Source: Candidatus Microgenomates bacterium (GTDB lineage: Bacteria; Patescibacteriota; Microgenomatia; Daviesbacterales; UBA10151). From it: a stretch of 64,000 bases of DNA. Under the pieces are notes generated by a model. The model was not told where the DNA came from, made no database searches, and saw only the letters and a list, made by a program, of their open reading frames with translations. The translations under genes and the position numbers were made by a program. Below, piece by piece: positions 2,599 to 22,159 of the stretch (position 1 is the first letter of the stretch; every line of letters begins with the position of its first letter). The stretch covers positions 98,121 through 162,120 of the forward strand of contig JACOYE010000007.1 of the NCBI GenBank assembly GCA_016182045.1, given 5' to 3'.

Positions 2599-3471
2599 CT
2601 AATTATTACCTATTTTCCAAATCCCCTTTTCTCTAAAAGCAGGTATTGTCTGTCTTTTTGCAGCATTTAAAATAACCGGCACCGGCTTATTAATTTTCGT
2701 AGCATATTCACTAGCTTCAATGATTTTGCTTCCCTTAAGATAAGCAATTCTTTTATGTAAAGCTTCCATCAGGGCAAGCGAAACTATTCTTTCCATTATT
2801 TTTGTTATTCTTTTATCACGATATTCACCAAAAGAACGGTAATAGATTTGTTTTTCTTTATCACGAATAATTATCCCGGGGAAACCTAATTTGTATAATT
2901 GATAATTTATCAATACCCTACCTATCCTACCGTTACCGTCATTAAAAGGATGAATTGTCTCAAATTGCAGATGGAATTTAGAGATATTGTCCACAAAATA
3001 ACTTATATGATCGCTTGAATATTCAATTAAAGCCTTTTCTAGCAAACGTTCTACATGTTCCGGAGCAGTAGCAATAAAAGTTCCAATTCGCACATATTCT
3101 CCTTTTTTACGTAATCTGCCGGCAATGCCATCATCAATATTGCCAATCAACATTTGATGCAAAAGCAAGATAATATCTTTGGATAGCTCCTGTGAAGATT
3201 TATTGTGGATATATTCCATAACCCTAGCCAAATTCTTAGCCTCATATACCTCATGCAGGCTGACATTTTTCGATACCTCCATCTCTAAAAGTATCTTTTC
3301 TGTTTCTTTAAGAGTGAGGGTAGAATTTTCTATCGCATTTGAGTTATAGACACTTTCAGGGATTTCAGCTTCATCAATAATTTTAAGTAATGAACCTTTG
3401 CTAATCTTTAACCGATCATACTCTTTTTTAAGAATTTCAATTCTTTTTTGAAAGGAAGTAGAAGTTGACAT
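2599..3471 (-). CDS. Fic/Doc family protein (AMPylation-type Fido domain)
   Basis: canonical HPFNDGNGRIGR Fic motif. Confidence 0.8.
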   Translation of the reverse strand: MSTSTSFQKRIEILKKEYDRLKISKGSLLKIIDEAEIPESVYNSNAIENSTLTLKETEKILLEMEVSKNVSLHEVYEAKNLARVMEYIHNKSSQELSKDIILLLHQMLIGNIDDGIAGRLRKKGEYVRIGTFIATAPEHVERLLEKALIEYSSDHISYFVDNISKFHLQFETIHPFNDGNGRIGRVLINYQLYKLGFPGIIIRDKEKQIYYRSFGEYRDKRITKIMERIVSLALMEALHKRIAYLKGSKIIEASEYATKINKPVPVILNAAKRQTIPAFREKGIWKIGNN

Positions 3472-3677: not shown

Positions 3678-4733
3678 TTATCTAAAATAAGTCTCGTTGG
3701 CAAACTTAATCTGTTCTATAAACAACTTTTTGATTTCATAAATACTTTCCTGCTCGTAAAACAAAATTAAAGCCTTTTTAAATTCATCTTCATCAACACT
3801 GCGATATGAAAGTGGATATAAATCGTAAGCAAGTAGAATCGCATTTGTCAGCATTCTGGCAGTTCTTTTGTTACCATCTGCATACGGCTGAATATAAGGC
3901 ATCATAAAATGAACAATCAGCGCTTTTTCAAAAGGGCTTTTGACCTTGTTTACAACATTAATTGTTTTTTCAAAAACCTCTTTTGTCTGATGTTCATTAT
4001 CAAGAGGATGATAAGTTGTTCCGGTAATTCCCACTGCTTGTTTTCTGATACCAGAGGAAATCCCCAACCCTTTAGTTAAAATATTGTGCAGCTGATTAAT
4101 TCCTGAAACAGAAATAGTTTTAAAATCATTTTTTGCTTTTAGTATTTCTTCAAAAGCTGCTTTGTGATTAAGAATCATCATTGCCTCATCTTTACTCTTA
4201 CCAGCTGCTTCTTTTTGTTCCTTAATTAAAGACTCTGTTTCTAAAAGCGTGTAAGTATTGCCCTCAATTTTGGATGATTTCCAAGACAATTCAATGACAA
4301 ACCTTTCTAATTCCCTTTTCAAAAGGTCAGGACTTAGTTTCATCGTCTGTTCTCTAAAACTTAGTGCCACTTTCTCTAAGGTGTTTATTTCTTCCGGCGT
4401 CAATAAATCATGCAAGTTTTTAAATATCTCAAAATCAAATGATTTTCTGGCACCAATTCTATTGTCTGGATCATCGGCGAAATATCTTTCAAGGTTAAAC
4501 TCGCGAAGAAGCGGGTTTTGAACTTTGGAAAAATATATTGTAGCTCTAGCCTTTCCTGTTACACTAACCAGTTTTTTAATCAATAAAACATGAATATCTC
4601 TTATAACGGTTGGCTTTGAAACGGGATATAATTTAGAAACTTTTTCTTGAATTTCCTCCCTAAGAAGTCCTTCTGATTGGTTAATTACATTAAGAATGTA
4701 TTTTTGTCTTGTAGTTAATATCGTATCATTCAT
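3678..4733 (-). CDS. Fic family protein with N-terminal winged-helix/HTH-like region
   Basis: variant Fic motif HFMMPYIQPYADGNKRTAR; N-terminal region resembles DNA-binding wHTH (KPTVIRDIHVLL). Confidence 0.65.
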   Translation of the reverse strand: MNDTILTTRQKYILNVINQSEGLLREEIQEKVSKLYPVSKPTVIRDIHVLLIKKLVSVTGKARATIYFSKVQNPLLREFNLERYFADDPDNRIGARKSFDFEIFKNLHDLLTPEEINTLEKVALSFREQTMKLSPDLLKRELERFVIELSWKSSKIEGNTYTLLETESLIKEQKEAAGKSKDEAMMILNHKAAFEEILKAKNDFKTISVSGINQLHNILTKGLGISSGIRKQAVGITGTTYHPLDNEHQTKEVFEKTINVVNKVKSPFEKALIVHFMMPYIQPYADGNKRTARMLTNAILLAYDLYPLSYRSVDEDEFKKALILFYEQESIYEIKKLFIEQIKFANETYFR

Positions 4734-4813
4734 ATATATTATCGTATCATATTGAGACGATATGTCAAGTATTAAATCTGTCCAAAATATTAGTTTGAGT
4801 AAGCAATATCTGG

Positions 4814-4842
4814 CTCCGTATTCCTAGGATTAATCGAACTGG
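4814..4842. repeat. 25-28-bp near-palindromic repeat CCGTATTCCTAGGATTAATCGAACTG, copy 1
   Basis: three copies at 4814-4842, 5668-5695, 6294-6318, each in an upstream region of a minus-strand transcription unit. Confidence 0.6.
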
Positions 4843-4957
4843 ACGATTTGATTGTAATATAAAGACTTTCTTCTAACAAGAACAGCAGCTTAGAGTTTCC
4901 TAATAATTATTAAACTGCTAATTTAGCAGTTAAACAAAATAAGCAGTTTCAAGGGGA

Positions 4958-5620
4958 TTATTTATTCTTCCCAGGTTTAGGAGTGGGGGTAGGTTGGGCA
5001 AACCAATCTATTAAGCCGTTATAAAGAGACTGAGCAATTTCCTGTTGTCTCGTCCCTGTACTATTGCTTAAAAGGGTACATTCGGTCGTGTTTGAAATAA
5101 AAACTGTTTCTTGGATAGTTGCAGGCATATTTACTTTAAGTAATACTCCTGATGCAAAATTTGTTACTCCTAAATCAGATACTCCTAATTCAGTTGCCAA
5201 ACGAGCATGAATTCTTTCTGCAAATGCCTTATCCTTATTAAGTTTTCCATACAATCCTAAAGTTCCGTTCTTGGAATGATCTATGGAACCGTTAAGATGG
5301 ACTGAAACTAGAGCTTCACCACCAAAGTTGTTGGCAAAAGTATAACGGTCATTATTTGATTTGTAACTATCATCTGTTCTAGTCATACCCACAATTGCTC
5401 TATCAGTTTCTAAAAGAGTTTTTAATTTATTAGCAATCTGTAAGTTAGCATCTGCTTCGGTTAAAGTAGGACAAGCAGTTGAACCTAAATCTGTTCCACC
5501 ATGTCCGGGATCAATAACGATTTTATGGCCTGTAACCGGAGAAACAGCAAGTGTAGTTTGAGGAAGGAAAGCAAATAAAGCAAAAAGAAATAATACGAAA
5601 ATGCTTGTTCTTTTAAGCAT
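4958..5620 (-). CDS. N-acetylmuramoyl-L-alanine amidase (Amidase_3 family), secreted
   Basis: signal peptide then IVIDPGHGGTDLG motif typical of Amidase_3. Confidence 0.75.
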   Translation of the reverse strand: MLKRTSIFVLFLFALFAFLPQTTLAVSPVTGHKIVIDPGHGGTDLGSTACPTLTEADANLQIANKLKTLLETDRAIVGMTRTDDSYKSNNDRYTFANNFGGEALVSVHLNGSIDHSKNGTLGLYGKLNKDKAFAERIHARLATELGVSDLGVTNFASGVLLKVNMPATIQETVFISNTTECTLLSNSTGTRQQEIAQSLYNGLIDWFAQPTPTPKPGKNK

Positions 5621-5667
5621 AATTCTAGTCTATCACAAATTCTTTTGGTTAGATTAATAAATTCGAG

Positions 5668-5695
5668 CTCCGTATTCCTAGGATTAATTGAACTG
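5668..5695. repeat. CCTAGG-centred repeat, copy 2
   Basis: CTCCGTATTCCTAGGATTAATTGAACTG. Confidence 0.6.
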
Positions 5696-5706
5696 CCGTA
5701 GAAAAA

Positions 5707-5967
5707 TTATTCACTTGCAGATTGGTGAAGAATAGAGGAAGCAAGTGTTTGATAAGGAATTCCCTGTTTGACAGCTTTAGCTTTTAGCTTATACAGATCC
5801 CGTTCAGATAGTCTGATATTAATATTCTTGGTTTTATTCAGAGTATTCCTAGCAATCTGCATTAATTCCTTTTTGCGCTTAGTAAAATTTTTAACCGATT
5901 TCCATTCACCTCTTTCAATCTCTGCTAAAAGTTGTTTCTCCTCATCATCTAATTCATAATATTTCAT
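5707..5967 (-). CDS. brnA: BrnA-like antitoxin (type II TA)
   Basis: small protein adjacent to BrnT-like gene; YELDDEEKQLLAEIERGEW N-terminus typical of BrnA/COG3514 family. Confidence 0.65.
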   Translation of the reverse strand: MKYYELDDEEKQLLAEIERGEWKSVKNFTKRKKELMQIARNTLNKTKNINIRLSERDLYKLKAKAVKQGIPYQTLASSILHQSASE

Positions 5968-5969
5968 AA

Positions 5970-6254
5970 TTACTTCTTCTCACCTCCATATAAATATTTT
6001 TTAGTTGCTTTCCGAGAAGGAAAGATAGTTTTTAAAAAAATCTTTTCTTCGTCTTCTACATAAGGAACATAGTAAGCATAATCATCTATCTCAACTACAA
6101 GAATTCTTTGATTAGGATAACGCTTTTTATTTGGATGTTCAAAATCATCTAATACTCTTCCCTCTTCAATAGCTGTTTGAACATCTTCGAATGAAATCTC
6201 CCTTAGTGCTTTTAAAAGAGCACTCTTCTCTTGATCCCAATCAAAGTATTTCAC
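5970..6254 (-). CDS. brnT: BrnT-like toxin (DUF497 ribonuclease toxin)
   Basis: MKYFDWDQEKSALLKALREISFEDV... resembles BrnT N-terminus; 3-nt gap to BrnA gene. Confidence 0.7.
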   Translation of the reverse strand: MKYFDWDQEKSALLKALREISFEDVQTAIEEGRVLDDFEHPNKKRYPNQRILVVEIDDYAYYVPYVEDEEKIFLKTIFPSRKATKKYLYGGEKK

Positions 6255-16676: not shown

Positions 16677-16701
16677 CCCCACGTTCAGTTTACATGAACG
16701 T
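16677..16701. repeat. 25-bp palindromic hairpin element CCACGTTCA-GTTTACA-TGAACGTGG (copy 1)
   Basis: second near-identical copy at 44193-44217. Confidence 0.5.
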
Positions 16702-16764
16702 GGAAGCCACTGGAAACTGTTGGGCAAATTATACTCCAAAGAAAGTACGGAAACAAGGGTTGGA

Positions 16765-16853
16765 GGCGGTGGGAGTGGGATTCGAACCCACGATACCTTA
16801 CGGTATACGAGCTTTCCAAGCCCGCGCACTAGGCCAGACTATGCGATCCCACC
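16765..16853 (-). tRNA. tRNA-Ser (anticodon GGA), long variable arm
   Basis: hand-folded: acceptor GGTGGGA/TCCCACC, anticodon loop TTGGAAA, 16-nt variable arm, T arm GTGGG-TTCGAAT-CCCAC. Confidence 0.8.
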
Positions 16854-16950
16854 AGGCTTTTGCAATTATAACCTAAGGTTGTATTCTCATTCCATCGTAA
16901 GCAGGTTGAGCTTTGGGGCAGATTTTTTTGCATCTTAAGGAGCAGGAAGA

Positions 16951-17352
16951 CTATTTTAACATCTCGCGAGCTTTTTTTAAAAGGACTTTGTCCTGAGAAA
17001 AAGTTAATTGTTTTAAAGCATCCTTTACTTCATACCAGCCAGCTTCTTCAACCTCCCAATCATGCAGAGAGGGATCACCTGAAACATATTTCATTAAAAA
17101 ATAAGTAACCACCTTAAAGATTTTCTCTCCATTTAGGATATATACATATTTGGAATAACCAACCTTATCCAAAATTTCAGCTTCCACTCCACCTTCTTCC
17201 CTTACCTCACGAACAGCAGCTTGTTGAGATGTCTGTCCTGGATCAATCAAACCCTTAGGAAAACTCCAATGATGATTTTGAGAATGCTTGGTCAAAAGCA
17301 CTTGACCCTGACTATTGAAAACAATCCCTCCTGCGGAAAATTCACGTTTCAT
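16951..17352 (-). CDS. NUDIX hydrolase
   Basis: Nudix box GLIDPGQTSQQAAVREVREEGGV. Confidence 0.8.
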   Translation of the reverse strand: MKREFSAGGIVFNSQGQVLLTKHSQNHHWSFPKGLIDPGQTSQQAAVREVREEGGVEAEILDKVGYSKYVYILNGEKIFKVVTYFLMKYVSGDPSLHDWEVEEAGWYEVKDALKQLTFSQDKVLLKKAREMLK

Positions 17353-17603
17353 CTGTAAATATCCTTTCTGTTATCCACATCATGAATTACTAAAATTTCA
17401 TCCTCAGCATCAAATGCCACTCTATAATCTCCTATTCTAAATCTGTATTGCCCTAAATCACTACGGGTTAATGGCTCCGCAAAATCCAAGGGGTCTTCCT
17501 GTGTACAAAAATAGTCTAATTTGGCGATAATTCGAATCTGAATTTCTTTGGGTAACTTTTTAAACCTCCTCAGAGAACTTTTAGTAAACTGGTAGTCAAA
17601 CAT
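17349..17603 (-). CDS. RelE/ParE-family toxin
   Basis: 84 aa, YRFRIGDYRVAFDAEDEILVIHDV matches RelE/ParE C-terminal pattern; overlaps antitoxin gene by 1 nt. Confidence 0.65.
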   Translation of the reverse strand: MFDYQFTKSSLRRFKKLPKEIQIRIIAKLDYFCTQEDPLDFAEPLTRSDLGQYRFRIGDYRVAFDAEDEILVIHDVDNRKDIYR

Positions 17604-17884
17604 TATGCTATTCCCAACATCTTCTTAACTTGGGCAGAAGAATATCTGACCTTATCAACTCTTGATTTTGCTATTCTTTTCAAATAGTTTTCAGAAGACA
17701 TTGCTTCCAGATCCTCTAAGAAGGATTCCCAAACGCGATTAGGCACCAATACTCCCACAGGCTTATTGTTTCTCATTACTCTGACAAATTTTCCATTTTT
17801 TTCAGCTTTTTTGAAAACTTTGGTCAAACCTGCCTGGGCTTTTTGGATGCTGGTAAAGTCTTCATTAGCAATCAATTGTGCCAT
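17603..17884 (-). CDS. Phd/YefM-like antitoxin
   Basis: 93-aa partner directly upstream of RelE-like gene. Confidence 0.5.
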   Translation of the reverse strand: MAQLIANEDFTSIQKAQAGLTKVFKKAEKNGKFVRVMRNNKPVGVLVPNRVWESFLEDLEAMSSENYLKRIAKSRVDKVRYSSAQVKKMLGIA

Positions 17885-17917
17885 ATGTAATAATTATTAC
17901 AGAATCCTTACAGAATG

Positions 17918-17970
17918 TCAATGGTTAAAAACAATTCCACCAGCACTAAATTCCCGTTTCATATTTGGAG
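17918..17970. repeat. diverged duplicate of the NUDIX gene 5' end (encodes MKREFSAGGIVFN on minus strand)
   Basis: rc of 17918-17970 = ATGAAACGGGAATTTAGTGCTGGTGGAATTGTTTTTAAC vs real start ATGAAACGTGAATTTTCCGCAGGAGGGATTGTTTTCAAT at 17352. Confidence 0.6.
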
Positions 17971-17988
17971 TAAATTTTATGCTAAACT

Positions 17989-18708
17989 TTATATTTCTAC
18001 AATCGCTGATACGGGTAGGTGATCTGACCCTTCTGAATCTTTAACTCTGAATGAGCGTACTCTGATATCTTTACTGACAAAAATATAATCTAATCGATGC
18101 CGCAACTTTGTTTCCGCAAATCCCTCGACATTAAATGGATAGACTGTCCATGTTGGAACTGTTAAATTCTGATCAGCATTAACCATAACTTGATTTAGCT
18201 TGGTCACAATTAAACTGTCGGGGTGGGAATTGAAATCACCCATCAGGATTGCTCTTGCAGAAGGAAGCAGTTTTATTAAATTATCTACCTGTAGATTGCG
18301 CATCTTTGATTCTTTAAATTGATGAGAATAAGCCAGATGGACAGTAAAAACTGTCAGCATATTATTTCCCGTGTTAATTTTAGCTTCCACTGCAATCCGT
18401 GGTTCTGTCTCTGCTGTATTCTTATATAAACTCAAACCACTCAACTTGTGAAATATACTCTTTGCTATTGGATATCTACTCAAAATAGCATTCCCCTGCG
18501 GATATCCTAAACGGGTTTGATCCACGGCCCGGTGATAGCTACATTGATAACCAAGCTCTTTGGCAATAACAGCAGCAGTATTAGTTCCATCTTTTTCTAT
18601 GGCCTCTTGTAACCCGATGACATCAGCATTATTCTGCTTTAAAAAAGAAATTATCATCTTTAGATGATGGCCTTGCCAAATATTCCAGGAGACAACTTTA
18701 ATCTGCAT
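17989..18708 (-). CDS. endonuclease/exonuclease/phosphatase (EEP) family protein
   Basis: WNIWQG..., GDFNSHPDS, SDHLPV motifs. Confidence 0.75.
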   Translation of the reverse strand: MQIKVVSWNIWQGHHLKMIISFLKQNNADVIGLQEAIEKDGTNTAAVIAKELGYQCSYHRAVDQTRLGYPQGNAILSRYPIAKSIFHKLSGLSLYKNTAETEPRIAVEAKINTGNNMLTVFTVHLAYSHQFKESKMRNLQVDNLIKLLPSARAILMGDFNSHPDSLIVTKLNQVMVNADQNLTVPTWTVYPFNVEGFAETKLRHRLDYIFVSKDIRVRSFRVKDSEGSDHLPVSAIVEI

Positions 18709-18767
18709 AATTTGTTTATGATTATACCATTGACAATTTATTGTAATACTATAAAATAGGTATTACT

Positions 18768-19040
18768 ATGCAGATACAACCTACTACTGTAACTCAAAAG
18801 GGACAAGTCACCATTCCCTCTCCCATCAGAAGGGCCCTCGGATTAAAACGCGGGGATCAAGTTCAATTTACTATTACCAAAAAAAAAGTAGTTCAATTAA
18901 AGTCAGCTAAAAAATTCTCCATTATGTCTCTTTATGGTTCTTTAAAACCCAAGATTAAGCCAAAACTCTCCGGTCAGAAGCTAATTAAATGGGAAAAAGA
19001 AATGGCTCACCAAGCATGGGCGGAGCAAGCTAACAAATGA
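18768..19040 (+). CDS. AbrB/MazE(SpoVT)-type antitoxin (VapB-like)
   Basis: N-terminal swapped-hairpin pattern KGQVTIPSPIRRALGLKRGDQV; overlaps PIN gene by 4 nt. Confidence 0.6.
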   Translation: MQIQPTTVTQKGQVTIPSPIRRALGLKRGDQVQFTITKKKVVQLKSAKKFSIMSLYGSLKPKIKPKLSGQKLIKWEKEMAHQAWAEQANK

Positions 19041-19435
19041 TCTTCATTGATTCTAATGTAATTATCAGGTTTGTTTTAAATGATAATCCGAAACTTTCAG
19101 CTAAATCTTATCAGATACTAAAACAGATAGAAAATGGTGCTAAAGTTTATCTTGCACCAATAATTTTGGCTGAGATAGTTTATGTACTGTTAAAAGTATA
19201 CAAACTGGGAAAAACAGAAATCAAAAATAAAGTCTTACCTGTTGTAATGATGGAAAATATTAATATGGAAAAGAAGGATATTTTACCCAGGGCATTTGAA
19301 TTTTTTGTATCTAAGAATGTTGATTTTGAGGATGCATACTTAGCTGCCTTAATGGAGAAAAAACAAATTAAAAAACTTTATTCTTTTGATGAGGATTTTG
19401 ATAAATTTCCCCAAATTGAAAGACTAGAAGGTTAG
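19037..19435 (+). CDS. PIN-domain toxin (VapC-like)
   Basis: MIFIDSNVIIRF... conserved acidic residues (D5, E..., D at FDED). Confidence 0.7.
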   Translation: MIFIDSNVIIRFVLNDNPKLSAKSYQILKQIENGAKVYLAPIILAEIVYVLLKVYKLGKTEIKNKVLPVVMMENINMEKKDILPRAFEFFVSKNVDFEDAYLAALMEKKQIKKLYSFDEDFDKFPQIERLEG

Positions 19436-19441
19436 TAATAG

Positions 19442-19527
19442 CGGAGGCGGGAGGATTCGAACCTCCGTGGGACTTTCGCCCCGATAGTTTTCGAAACTAT
19501 TTCCTTAAGCCACTCGGACACGCCTCC
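19442..19527 (-). tRNA. tRNA-Ser (anticodon CGA)
   Basis: hand-folded, anticodon loop TTCGAAA, long variable arm. Confidence 0.8.
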
Positions 19528-19529
19528 TC

Positions 19530-19605
19530 TGGCGCCCCCGGGGCGAGTCGAACGCCCAACCACATGGACCGCAACCATGCGTTCTATCCATTGAACTACG
19601 GGGAC
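19530..19605 (-). tRNA. tRNA-Arg (anticodon GCG as read)
   Basis: hand-folded: D arm GTTC-AATGGATA-GAAC, anticodon stem CATGG/CCATG, loop TTGCGGT, T arm GGGCG-TTCGACT-CGCCC, CCA encoded. Confidence 0.7.
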
Positions 19606-19624
19606 AACACGGGTATTTTAGCAT

Positions 19625-19672
19625 TTGGAATGTGAGATTGCCACGTCACCTGCGGTGACTCGCAATGACAGA
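19625..19672. repeat. S-family repeat, inverted left-half copy (GTGAGATTGCCACGTC...CTCGCAATGACAGAGG)
   Basis: rc matches 21217-21258 (TTTGTCATTGCGAGG...GACGTGGCAATCTCAC). Confidence 0.55.
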
Positions 19673-19676
19673 GGAG

Positions 19677-20270
19677 TTATCTATGAATATTTTCCAAAGG
19701 GAAATGTTTTTGCAGTCCTTCCGACCATTTTTCCATCCAGGATTTGAAGGGCACTTCCACAAAAGGTAAGAATCTGGCCACAATCTTTTTCACCTGTTCC
19801 TCACCCTGTCCTGAGCTTGTCGAAGGATCCAAAACCAGCATTAACTGTCCGGGAAATCTGAGTCTTGTTTGGATGATTAAAATTTTATGATTTTCTTTTT
19901 CTTTAAACCAAAATGAATCCAAAAAATGCCAGAAATAGAAATCCTCACCAATGGTGATGCCTTGAGTAGAAATTCTATATTTTATATCATGCGGTGGAAC
20001 AAATGCCAAAACATAGGCCACAAATGTCAAAGCCAAAAGTACCCCAATCAGTAAAAATTCCCTGGCCAAAAGCAAAATTAGGATCAAAAGAATAACTATG
20101 ATGGCGATAGTGGTGTAAAAGGAGCGGTCTTTTCTCCTAAAGGGGCGGGCAGGTGCTTCCCAGGAAAGTAAGGTTTTAACCTCCCCTGCTTCCATGATTT
20201 TGGGGTGAAGGGGTCCTGGTTCAGAGCCAGCTGGTTGCTTTTTAGTTTGTTTTTTTTCTTCCTTGGGCAT
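19677..20270 (-). CDS. hypothetical membrane protein
   Basis: 197 aa, Lys-rich N-terminus, two TM helices. Confidence 0.4.
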   Translation of the reverse strand: MPKEEKKQTKKQPAGSEPGPLHPKIMEAGEVKTLLSWEAPARPFRRKDRSFYTTIAIIVILLILILLLAREFLLIGVLLALTFVAYVLAFVPPHDIKYRISTQGITIGEDFYFWHFLDSFWFKEKENHKILIIQTRLRFPGQLMLVLDPSTSSGQGEEQVKKIVARFLPFVEVPFKSWMEKWSEGLQKHFPLENIHR

Positions 20271-20519: not shown

Positions 20520-21221
20520 CTATCTAGCCAGCGTGATGGCCCAGACTTTTTTGGCACCTGCTCTTTTTAAAATCCAGCAACATTCCCTGAGTGTTGAACC
20601 GGTGGTCCAGACATCATCTATAAGCAGGGTATAGGGTTTAGGGGATAGGGTATAGTCAGAAGAAATTTCAAAAGCACCAGAAATATTTTGTTTTCTTTGT
20701 TTACCTTTAAGTTTTGCTTGGGATCTGGTATAACGGATGCGTTTTAGTCCATCACAGTAACCTAAACCAAGCTTTTTGGATAATATTTGTCCAATTAAAG
20801 ATGACTGGTTAAATCCCCGAGAATTGGCTCTCCACCAATATAGCGGCACAGGAATGACTACCCATCCAACTCCTTGATCTTTTTTAATTTGATCTAAAAC
20901 AAAAGGCTGATATTTGGCCCAATATTCTATAGTAATATCCATCAAAATTTCCGCCAAATCTTTAATCCCTTTATATTTAAGTTGCTGAATGGCCGAGCGT
21001 AGTGAATCCTGGTATATTCCTAGACTCCATAATCCATCTAGTCCATATTTTCTGCGACAAACCGGATGAGTCTGCCCACCCACAGCCAATCTTTCACATC
21101 TGGGACAAACTAAATCAGTCTGCTTTATATCCCTTATACAATTCTGACAAAAATAGCTTCCCTCCTTACCACAACCAACGCATTTTTTGGGAAATAAAAT
21201 ATCTAGAATCCAGTTTGTCAT
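20520..21221 (-). CDS. comF: ComF family protein (phosphoribosyltransferase-like competence protein)
   Basis: N-terminal CxxC..CxxC zinc finger, C-terminal PRTase motif LLIDDVWTTGSTL. Confidence 0.8.
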   Translation of the reverse strand: MTNWILDILFPKKCVGCGKEGSYFCQNCIRDIKQTDLVCPRCERLAVGGQTHPVCRRKYGLDGLWSLGIYQDSLRSAIQQLKYKGIKDLAEILMDITIEYWAKYQPFVLDQIKKDQGVGWVVIPVPLYWWRANSRGFNQSSLIGQILSKKLGLGYCDGLKRIRYTRSQAKLKGKQRKQNISGAFEISSDYTLSPKPYTLLIDDVWTTGSTLRECCWILKRAGAKKVWAITLAR

Positions 21222-21718: not shown

Positions 21719-22159
21719 TTATTCTTTTCCCCGTAGCTCTTGTTGTACTCGGCGTATGTGATCTTTCTCTTTGATTATGCGGCGCTTATCAAATTCTTTT
21801 TTGGATTTTCCTAGTCCCACTTCTATCTTAAATTTATTATTTTTTTCATAAATAGATACTGGAACTAAAGTGGTGGCTTTCCCAGAAACTTTACCAATCA
21901 AAGAGTTAATTTGACTTTTGTGCAAAAGCAGTTTTCTTGATCTGGTGGCATCATAATCTTTCTGACTACTTTGTTGAAACTTAGGAATATTGGCATTGAC
22001 CAGATATGCTTCCCCGTTTAAGATTCTGACATAACTTTCACCCAAATCTACTCTACCAGCTCGGATAGATTTCACCTCAGCACCAGATAGGACTATACCA
22101 GCCTCAATCCGCTCCAGAATATGATAATTATGAAGGGCTTTTTTATTTAAAATTTTCAT
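21719..22159 (-). CDS. smpB: SsrA-binding protein SmpB
   Basis: full-length SmpB-like 146 aa. Confidence 0.9.
   Translation of the reverse strand: MKILNKKALHNYHILERIEAGIVLSGAEVKSIRAGRVDLGESYVRILNGEAYLVNANIPKFQQSSQKDYDATRSRKLLLHKSQINSLIGKVSGKATTLVPVSIYEKNNKFKIEVGLGKSKKEFDKRRIIKEKDHIRRVQQELRGKE

Follow-up and report, generated by a model that had tools for sequence, protein, structure and literature searches.

How does the start of one gene come to stand on both sides of a toxin-antitoxin (TA) module? This question is raised by the window analyzed here, the whole stretch of 64 kb of DNA to which all coordinates refer. In this window, a phd-relE gene pair on the minus strand runs into a nudix gene for an Ap4A-hydrolase-like protein, and a second copy of the first 13 nudix codons lies upstream of the pair. 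An initial annotation had explained the two copies as one sequence that was duplicated on the spot by the insertion of a TA cassette and later diverged. Our analysis shows that they are two alleles, which were recently joined by recombination. We consider it moderately probable that a unit with its own nudix start recombined into a resident nudix gene, and that the upstream copy is the orphaned original start.

Judging from its homologues, the host, which is an uncultured bacterium from groundwater, belongs to Candidatus Daviesbacteria/Microgenomates in the Patescibacteria. The features of the nudix locus are given in minus-strand reading order unless they are marked (+). The order observed directly is tRNA-Arg(gcg), tRNA-Ser(cga), an inverted VapBC pair (+), a gene of the endonuclease/exonuclease/phosphatase (EEP) family, the orphan nudix start, a promoter/operator, phd, relE, nudix, tRNA-Ser(gga) and dnaG.

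Two Copies of the Nudix Gene Start

The upstream copy (17962..17924 (-)) reads ATGAAACGGGAATTTAGTGCTGGTGGAATTGTTTTTAAC and encodes MKREFSAGGIVFN. The intact nudix start (17352..17314 (-)) encodes the same peptide, as had been noted initially. In the comparison of the two copies, 13 of 13 amino acids and 30 of 39 nucleotides (nt) were identical. The latter value corresponds to 77%; thus, the similarity is confirmed, but the earlier figure of about 80% was slightly too high. All nine nt differences are synonymous, including a Ser codon that is AGT in one copy and TCC in the other, and the longest identical run is 8 nt. In the six-frame translation of the window, the peptide is confined to these two places. 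The pair is also the largest direct repeat in 16900..19700 (38 nt, 79%, spacing 610).

The frame of the upstream copy runs on through CAT and ends with a TGA (17920..17918) that forms part of the -35 hexamer of the phd promoter. The copy is therefore a dead end of 14 codons and not the start of a different real gene, and it can be regarded as a footprint of the TA cassette that disrupted the nudix start. This part of the initial annotation held. The TA pair does lie between the copies, but not exactly so, because a 37-nt promoter/operator (17921..17885) and a CA dinucleotide intervene between the upstream copy and phd.

Since the source is a metagenome-assembled genome, the arrangement might be an assembly chimera of two co-existing strains. 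We find this scarcely credible. An independent Logan contig, L104 (1523 nt; L numbers are the labels of our comparison loci and contigs), is identical to the window from 19406 to 17884. Because this contig spans VapC, EEP, the orphan start and the TTGACA box, the junction is not a misassembly. Furthermore, to switch from one copy to the other, an assembler would have had a stretch of at most 8 identical nt, and the same architecture is present in unrelated assemblies. The strain is otherwise represented by just two short contigs. They overlap solely in the palindromic operator, where both break, and this overlap accounts for the contig break.

The Copies as Two Alleles

Codons 1-13 are the most conserved 39 nt of the nudix gene, with a mean nt identity of 82.0% compared with 60-76% in every other segment of this kind. 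At the protein level, an N-terminus MKREFSAGG(I/V) is nearly invariant in this Nudix family in Patescibacteria, Aquificae, Actinobacteria and one archaeon, and the remaining protein goes down to 40-50% identity.

Between the two copies, seven of about eight synonymous sites differ (proportion of differing synonymous sites, pS, 0.86); the corresponding values for nudix pairs from different species are 0.69-0.84. The mean pairwise identity of 56 Daviesbacteria nudix starts is 32.0 +/- 2.4 of 39 nt, and that of the window's two copies is 30. Among the nudix starts from other genomes, 38 of 55 match the orphan copy better than its own intact gene does, and the best foreign matches are L007 and L026 (36 of 39 nt). 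The orphan copy has no amino-acid change, for which a simulation of neutral decay gave P = 1e-4 to 1e-2. Since the orphan is undecayed, the differences are synonymous and the divergence is at the between-species level, both copies must have been under protein-level selection until recently. The undecayed state of the orphan also argues for a recent event. By these measures, the copies are two alleles that were recently joined by recombination and not one sequence copied in place. Under the explanation that we prefer, the alleles would come from different Daviesbacteria lineages.

An in-place origin, in which the insertion duplicated about 39-41 nt of its target and the copies then drifted apart, would account for the direct repeats that flank the cassette. 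It would also agree with L096, where the orphan is most similar to its own intact gene (34 of 39 nt). For the window, however, we judge this origin quite improbable. Under drift, nine of nine differences would hardly be synonymous in an intact orphan, the divergence is that between species, and the change between AGT and TCC cannot be reached by synonymous single steps. A target-site duplication of the transposase type does not fit either, because the repeat is 39 nt long and non-identical, and neither a transposase nor terminal inverted repeats at the cassette ends were found. Thus, the duplication and divergence proposed in the initial annotation could not be upheld.

The intact 14-codon frame, which ends inside the -35 box, might instead be a functional short frame kept by selection, be it as a leader peptide or as an element that regulates the TA operon. 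This is very improbable, since its equivalents in L088, L105 and L098 carry missense changes or deletions or are nearly gone, and most cassettes have none.

The phd-relE Cassette as a Probable Moving Unit

The phd-relE pair has the layout of a type II TA module: two small adjacent genes, with the antitoxin first and overlapping stop and start. The phd stop and the relE start have 1 nt in common, and the relE TGA in turn overlaps the nudix ATG (ATGA). The profile scores were 36.3 bits for PF02604 (cut-off 29.8) and 27.8 bits for PF05016 (cut-off 23). The match to the NCBIfam profile phd_fam was slightly under its cut-off, and none of the NCBIfam profiles matched the toxin. The closest solved relatives of the toxin are 2khe and M. 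tuberculosis Rv2866 in 3g5o. Phd has 191 homologues, and the named ones are all from Microgenomates. By layout and profiles, phd-relE is thus classed as a type II module with a RelE/ParE toxin and a Phd/YefM antitoxin.

The phd promoter is the best sigma-70-like site in 16700..19700 (11 of 12 matches plus TG). Its -35 box, TTGACA, lies at 17921..17916 and its TG-extended -10 box, AATAAT, at 17898..17893, with a 17-nt spacer. The -10 box is overlapped by a perfect 16-nt palindrome, TGTAATAATTATTACA (17901..17886 (-)), which is likely the antitoxin operator. The promoter-like site and the palindrome are conserved across loci, and the palindrome is present in nearly all related cassettes.

About 30 loci, of which roughly 20 are distinct, encode a Phd related to that of the window (67-93% identical). 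Wherever the left edge is covered, the homology sets in with the -35 box, which reads TTGACA in all but two loci (TTGACT or TTGATA). Beyond this edge, some loci have the 3' end of a tRNA, and others have part of a nudix start or genes that are unrelated. A tRNA directly followed by the cassette is the commonest configuration. At the right edge, the stop codon of relE usually overlaps the ATG of nudix. These fixed edges are read directly from the loci. The cassette contains phd and relE only.

In L105 and L123, a nudix start of 13-14 codons is fused to the relE stop and is followed by unrelated DNA, without a nudix body. L105 is a Blackburnbacteria genome, and its arrangement was confirmed by two further contigs (L106 and L107). 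The same cassette (RelE 85-90% identical) also stands at the head of another nudix subfamily in L089 and L095. Past the start, this subfamily shows only about 50% identity, although the flanking genes are of the usual type. The patch-only loci and the cassette heading two nudix subfamilies therefore point to a moving unit of promoter-phd-relE plus nudix codons 1-13, as do the recurrent junction in L088 and L105 and the stacked cassettes of L088 described below. L094 and L116 contain possible collapsed copies of the patch, which end with TTTAAT or TTTAAC. L108, L109 and L110, which share one Phd protein, were also searched for a breakpoint at the patch; their differences are confined to the 3' end of nudix, and they were uninformative. 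In L123, the cassette with the nudix-start fragment adjoins homologues of the ComF-family and smpB-like genes of the window, in rearranged order.

These loci bear on the possibility that the whole nudix gene was imported by homology-facilitated illegitimate recombination, a route that uses microhomologies of 3-10 bp after natural transformation (PMC6382021). The incoming DNA would have extended from promoter-phd-relE-nudix to a right-hand anchor, tRNA-Ser(gga) or dnaG, and would have replaced the resident gene from codon 14, with the left joint at TTTAAY. This would agree with the allelic nature of the copies. The tRNA-Ser(gga) gene, 97 nt 3' of nudix, is a conserved stretch (82-93% identity between species) that could serve as the anchor. 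In addition, TTTAAYYN stands before TTGACA in the left flanks of many cassettes. It matches nudix codons 12-13 (TTT AAY) but may just as well be what is left of an older orphan start. However, the import of a whole gene leaves unexplained the relE-fused fragments of 13-14 codons in L105 and L123 and the same cassette at the head of two nudix subfamilies. Moreover, random joints would vary, yet the 41-nt junction described below is common to three loci. We consider the import of the whole gene unlikely.

The Ancestral Site and Its Cargo

In 27 of about 43 Daviesbacteria genome loci, nudix begins 1-100 nt after a tRNA cluster, which consists of tRNA-Arg(gcg), tRNA-Ser(cga) and, in some, also tRNA-Arg(ccg). 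The initial annotation had proposed a comparison with relatives that have no cassette, and these have a single copy of the start directly after the cluster. In the remaining 16 loci, the gap holds 0.4-2.2 kb of cargo, such as TA pairs, acetyltransferases, deaminases and membrane proteins; in the window, it measures 2088 nt. By this comparison with relatives, the ancestral arrangement is the tRNA cluster followed directly by nudix.

The closest homologues of EEP (74% and 64%) sit in unrelated gene clusters, the 74% one in another genome, and no EEP was found within 6 kb of nudix in 80 genome loci. EEP was considered as a normal neighbour of nudix, and this was ruled out by the unrelated clusters of its closest homologues. 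EEP is clearly translocated island cargo. The cluster of the closest homologue (L099 2880-8133) contains three other Nudix-domain genes (one GrpB-fused), methyltransferases and a SET-domain gene; its Nudix genes are all without the MKREFSAGG start.

The polarity of the event could be the reverse. The resident configuration would have been a tRNA followed by promoter-phd-relE-nudix, as in L022, L026, L082 and L090. The incoming DNA would have been a left block of VapBC, EEP and donor nudix codons 1-13, anchored at the tRNA and joined upstream of the TA promoter. Only promoter-sparing joints would survive, since loss of antitoxin expression would be lethal, and selection on the promoter would account for the sharp edge at TTGACA. 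The commonest configuration and the translocated EEP both favor this polarity. However, EEP stands beside an intact nudix gene in no genome among more than 100 loci. The donor end at codon 13 plus 2 nt would also have to be due to chance, yet it is the same in L088 and L105, which have different left cargo. We therefore hold the reversed polarity to be improbable.

Recurrent Orphan Starts and Stacked Cassettes

A 41-nt start copy stands directly before TTGACA in three loci: it is intact in the window, has two residues changed in L088 and is decayed in its 5' half in L105. L098 has a shortened orphan start, and L096 has a longer orphan copy of about 24 codons. This recurrence was observed directly. 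The flanks upstream of the orphan starts show no homology between the window and L088 (p = 0.29); only L028 and L098 share a flank. The unrelated upstream flanks of the window and L088 agree with cassettes that arrived separately at sites with different contents.

L088: The order is orphan start, phd-relE, orphan start, inverted VapBC and nudix, and two cassettes are thus stacked. The full-length nudix gene after the stack (5334-5720) is without the Nudix-box stretch (REVxEEGGVEAE...) in the alignment and may be inactive. Between the tRNA cluster and the first orphan start of this locus, the cargo includes a small GIY-YIG-like open reading frame (ORF) at 3079-3348 (MYYVYILKCSDGKTYVGCTDNLDDRLKRHNSG...), which was identified by eye only.

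VapBC cassettes: In the VapBC homologues of L004 (4903-5619), L028 (5227-5979), L088 (4586-5281) and L010 (3126-3832, decayed), the 3' end of VapC directly adjoins a fragment of the nudix start of about 10-12 codons, whose T-rich codons 10-12 coincide with the complement of the VapC stop region. The AbrB/MazE-VapC cassette belongs to a second cassette family that behaves likewise. The VapBC pair of the window is also inverted relative to nudix. No nudix-start fragment remains there, and only 5 nt lie between VapC and the adjoining tRNA-Ser(cga).

L028 and L098: These loci share one decayed orphan start. Its Gly-to-Glu change and the flank upstream of it are common to both, but the cassettes beside it are different. 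Evidently, cassettes may also be swapped or lost beside old scars.

L004: A direct repeat of about 265 nt (4667-4938 and 5768-6036), comprising the promoter, a truncated phd and the nudix start, flanks the VapBC pair. The truncated phd copies have 63-64 codons, and relE is deleted. These remnants differ mainly synonymously (pS 0.31; proportion of differing nonsynonymous sites, pN, 0.04), as if both orphan antitoxin genes were kept.

Judged across these loci, the nudix start beside the tRNA cluster appears to be a recurrent, preferred landing place where cassettes stack.

A Possible Course of the Recombination

In the explanation that we prefer, the upstream 39 nt would be the original start of the resident, Ap4A-hydrolase-like nudix gene. 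A compact unit, composed of the promoter/operator, phd, relE and the nudix codons 1-13 fused to the relE stop, would have recombined at the end of the first 13 resident codons. The start copy of the unit would now head the nudix gene, which would be read from the TA operon through the ATGA overlap. The resident start would have been left just upstream of the -35 box of the cassette. We infer which copy is the resident one, and likewise how the joints were formed.

The likeliest substrates would be taken-up DNA or a circularized cassette, which would recombine via the conserved patch and the T-rich microhomology GTTTTTAAY with the help of host recombination functions. In one route, a circularized cassette would undergo a single exchange within the patch. 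In the other, a one-sided homologous event would be closed by a microhomology joint, possibly at the TTTAAYYN of the left flanks. Patescibacteria carry competence and homologous-recombination genes, and their gene exchange takes place mainly among themselves (PMC12455944). The window itself has a ComF-family gene at 20520..21221, with a match under the curated cut-off.

Several observations weigh against this explanation. L085-L087 have no nudix patch after relE. The patch-only loci, which suggest that the nudix start travels with the cassette, could in principle result from repeated deletions of the nudix body. The junction in L096 differs (about codon 24), and since its orphan is closest to its own intact gene, the pattern there fits an in-place duplication or a close donor. 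Among the sequences compared, the nearest have at most about 83% nt identity with saturated synonymous divergence (dS), and neither the empty site of this strain nor the donor was found among them. RecA normally needs 25-35 bp (PMC6382021). The patch offers 39 nt at 77%, and its identical runs do not exceed 8 nt. Since this falls far short of the need, a plain homologous crossover between the alleles is unlikely. Finally, the 2.1-kb island has no recombinase or transposase gene, and the ORFs read up to 27 kb do not resemble one. A recombinase, if one takes part, may act in trans.

Features of the Locus and Its Surroundings

The coordinates of the features are summarized in Table 1. The Nudix protein most resembles the Aquifex Ap4A hydrolase 3i7u (E 6e-35), with residues 1-130 aligned. 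Among the PADLOC defence-system profiles, no match was found for the TA pair or EEP, and nudix had only a weak match to PDC-S07. The gene at 21719..22159 (-) is probably smpB, judging from its own sequence and from the call on its counterparts.

Across Daviesbacteria (loci L002-L046), tRNA-Ser(gga) lies between nudix and dnaG in either orientation, 0.1-4 kb from nudix. In L016 and L022, the nudix-dnaG interval also holds VapBC cassettes, as a second variable spot with flanking tRNA genes.

Table 1. Positions of the features in the window (E, expect value of the profile match).
Feature	Position	Strand	Remarks
tRNA-Ser(gga)	16765..16853	-	Just 3' of nudix
nudix gene, 133 amino acids, Ap4A-hydrolase-like	16951..17352	-	PF00293, E 1.3e-24, above cut-off
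First 13 codons of the intact nudix gene	17314..17352	-	Putative cassette-borne copy
relE/parE-family toxin gene, 84 amino acids	17349..17603	-	PF05016, E 3.8e-6, above cut-off
phd/yefM-family antitoxin gene, 93 amino acids	17603..17884	-	PF02604, E 4.7e-9, above cut-off
Cassette promoter/operator, 37 nt	17885..17921	-	Promoter-site scan and homology of related loci
Orphan nudix start, codons 1-13, MKREFSAGGIVFN	17924..17962	-	26 nt after EEP
EEP gene	17989..18708	-	PF03372; between the VapBC cassette and the orphan start
AbrB/MazE-like antitoxin	18768..19040	+	PF04014
PIN/VapC toxin	19037..19435	+	PF01850
tRNA-Ser(cga) and tRNA-Arg(gcg)	19441..19605	-	Conserved left border of the island
ComF-family (competence-related) gene	20520..21221	-	Match under curated cut-off; beyond the tRNA cluster
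Probable smpB	21719..22159	-	Own sequence and SmpB call on its L111 and L123 counterparts; also beyond the tRNA cluster

Discussion

Integrative elements that target gene ends bring along a replacement copy of whichever end they interrupt. Examples are the prophage e14, which occupies the 3' end of icd in E. coli, and islands in tRNA or tmRNA genes. The relE-fused nudix start of L105 and L123 corresponds to such a replacement copy. As in these elements, the inserted DNA seems to bring its own gene end so that the gene stays intact, and the displaced copy is a short non-identical direct repeat with mostly synonymous differences. However, the end replaced here is the 5' end and not the 3' end, the element of about 0.6 kb contains the TA pair only, and translation of the replacement start is coupled to that of the toxin gene. 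No integrase was found in or near the element, and the copies have no identical core of more than 8 nt. Transposons and insertion sequences differ more clearly. They require repeats of 2-14 bp that are initially identical, whereas the repeat at the nudix locus is 39 nt long, 77% identical and allelic.

Homology-facilitated illegitimate recombination (de Vries & Wackernagel 2002; Prudhomme et al. 2002) combines homology on one side with a microhomology of 3-10 bp on the other, as summarized in PMC6382021. A one-sided homology with a microhomology joint is possible at the nudix locus as well, and the host lineage is thought to be competent. However, the process is known from laboratory crosses with scattered joints, whereas here a joint at the same nucleotide recurs in different genomes and the homologous segment is only 39 nt.

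The gene cassettes of integrons, including the TA cassettes of superintegrons, are also small, often single-operon units that stack at one site, with TA pairs as typical cargo. Their arrays gain and lose units by recombination between the separating repeats. The present cassettes show no attC, no IntI and no attI/Pc platform, each has its own promoter, and the repeats between them are pieces of the start of a protein-coding gene. No attC-like imperfect inverted repeat was seen at the cassette ends and no integrase among the ORFs examined near the locus, although no dedicated attC or IntI search was made.

Like the tRNA-adjacent islands and variable regions, the locus pairs a conserved tRNA cluster with a conserved core gene, and in 16 of about 43 genomes a variable block of 0.4-2.2 kb of accessory genes separates the two. 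Unlike them, it appears to grow at the core-gene side, within the first codons, and not at the tRNA 3' end, and it contains gene-start scars. Our literature search found no report of TA cassettes that carry a gene start.

TA pairs are highly mobile. To our knowledge, how their copies spread outside plasmids, phages, transposons and integrons is poorly understood. The locus and its relatives would provide a concrete route for TA genes in the ultra-small Patescibacteria, in which a cassette of 0.6 kb brings along a copy of the best-conserved 39 nt of a housekeeping gene. Such a cassette would land in the gene without inactivating it, capture its expression and leave dated scars that record successive arrivals. 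Even on the conservative reading, the locus is a clear natural case of recombination between deeply diverged genomes via a very short conserved patch.

A more far-reaching proposal, which we offer tentatively and regard as doubtful at present, is that phd-relE and, in parallel, the inverted VapBC pair are true mobile cassettes of Microgenomates. Codons 1-13 of the Ap4A-hydrolase gene would be their attachment site. The cassettes, probably in a circular form, would enter by a single exchange in the 39-41-nt patch and leave the resident start as a scar, so that arrays pile up. If this is true, the system would be integron-like, with no integrase in the cassettes examined, and would depend on host functions or on a recombinase encoded elsewhere, in some of the smallest bacterial genomes. 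If the insertion is site-directed, it would represent a new kind of cassette system and would also supply a natural marker by which gene flow among uncultured lineages could be followed.

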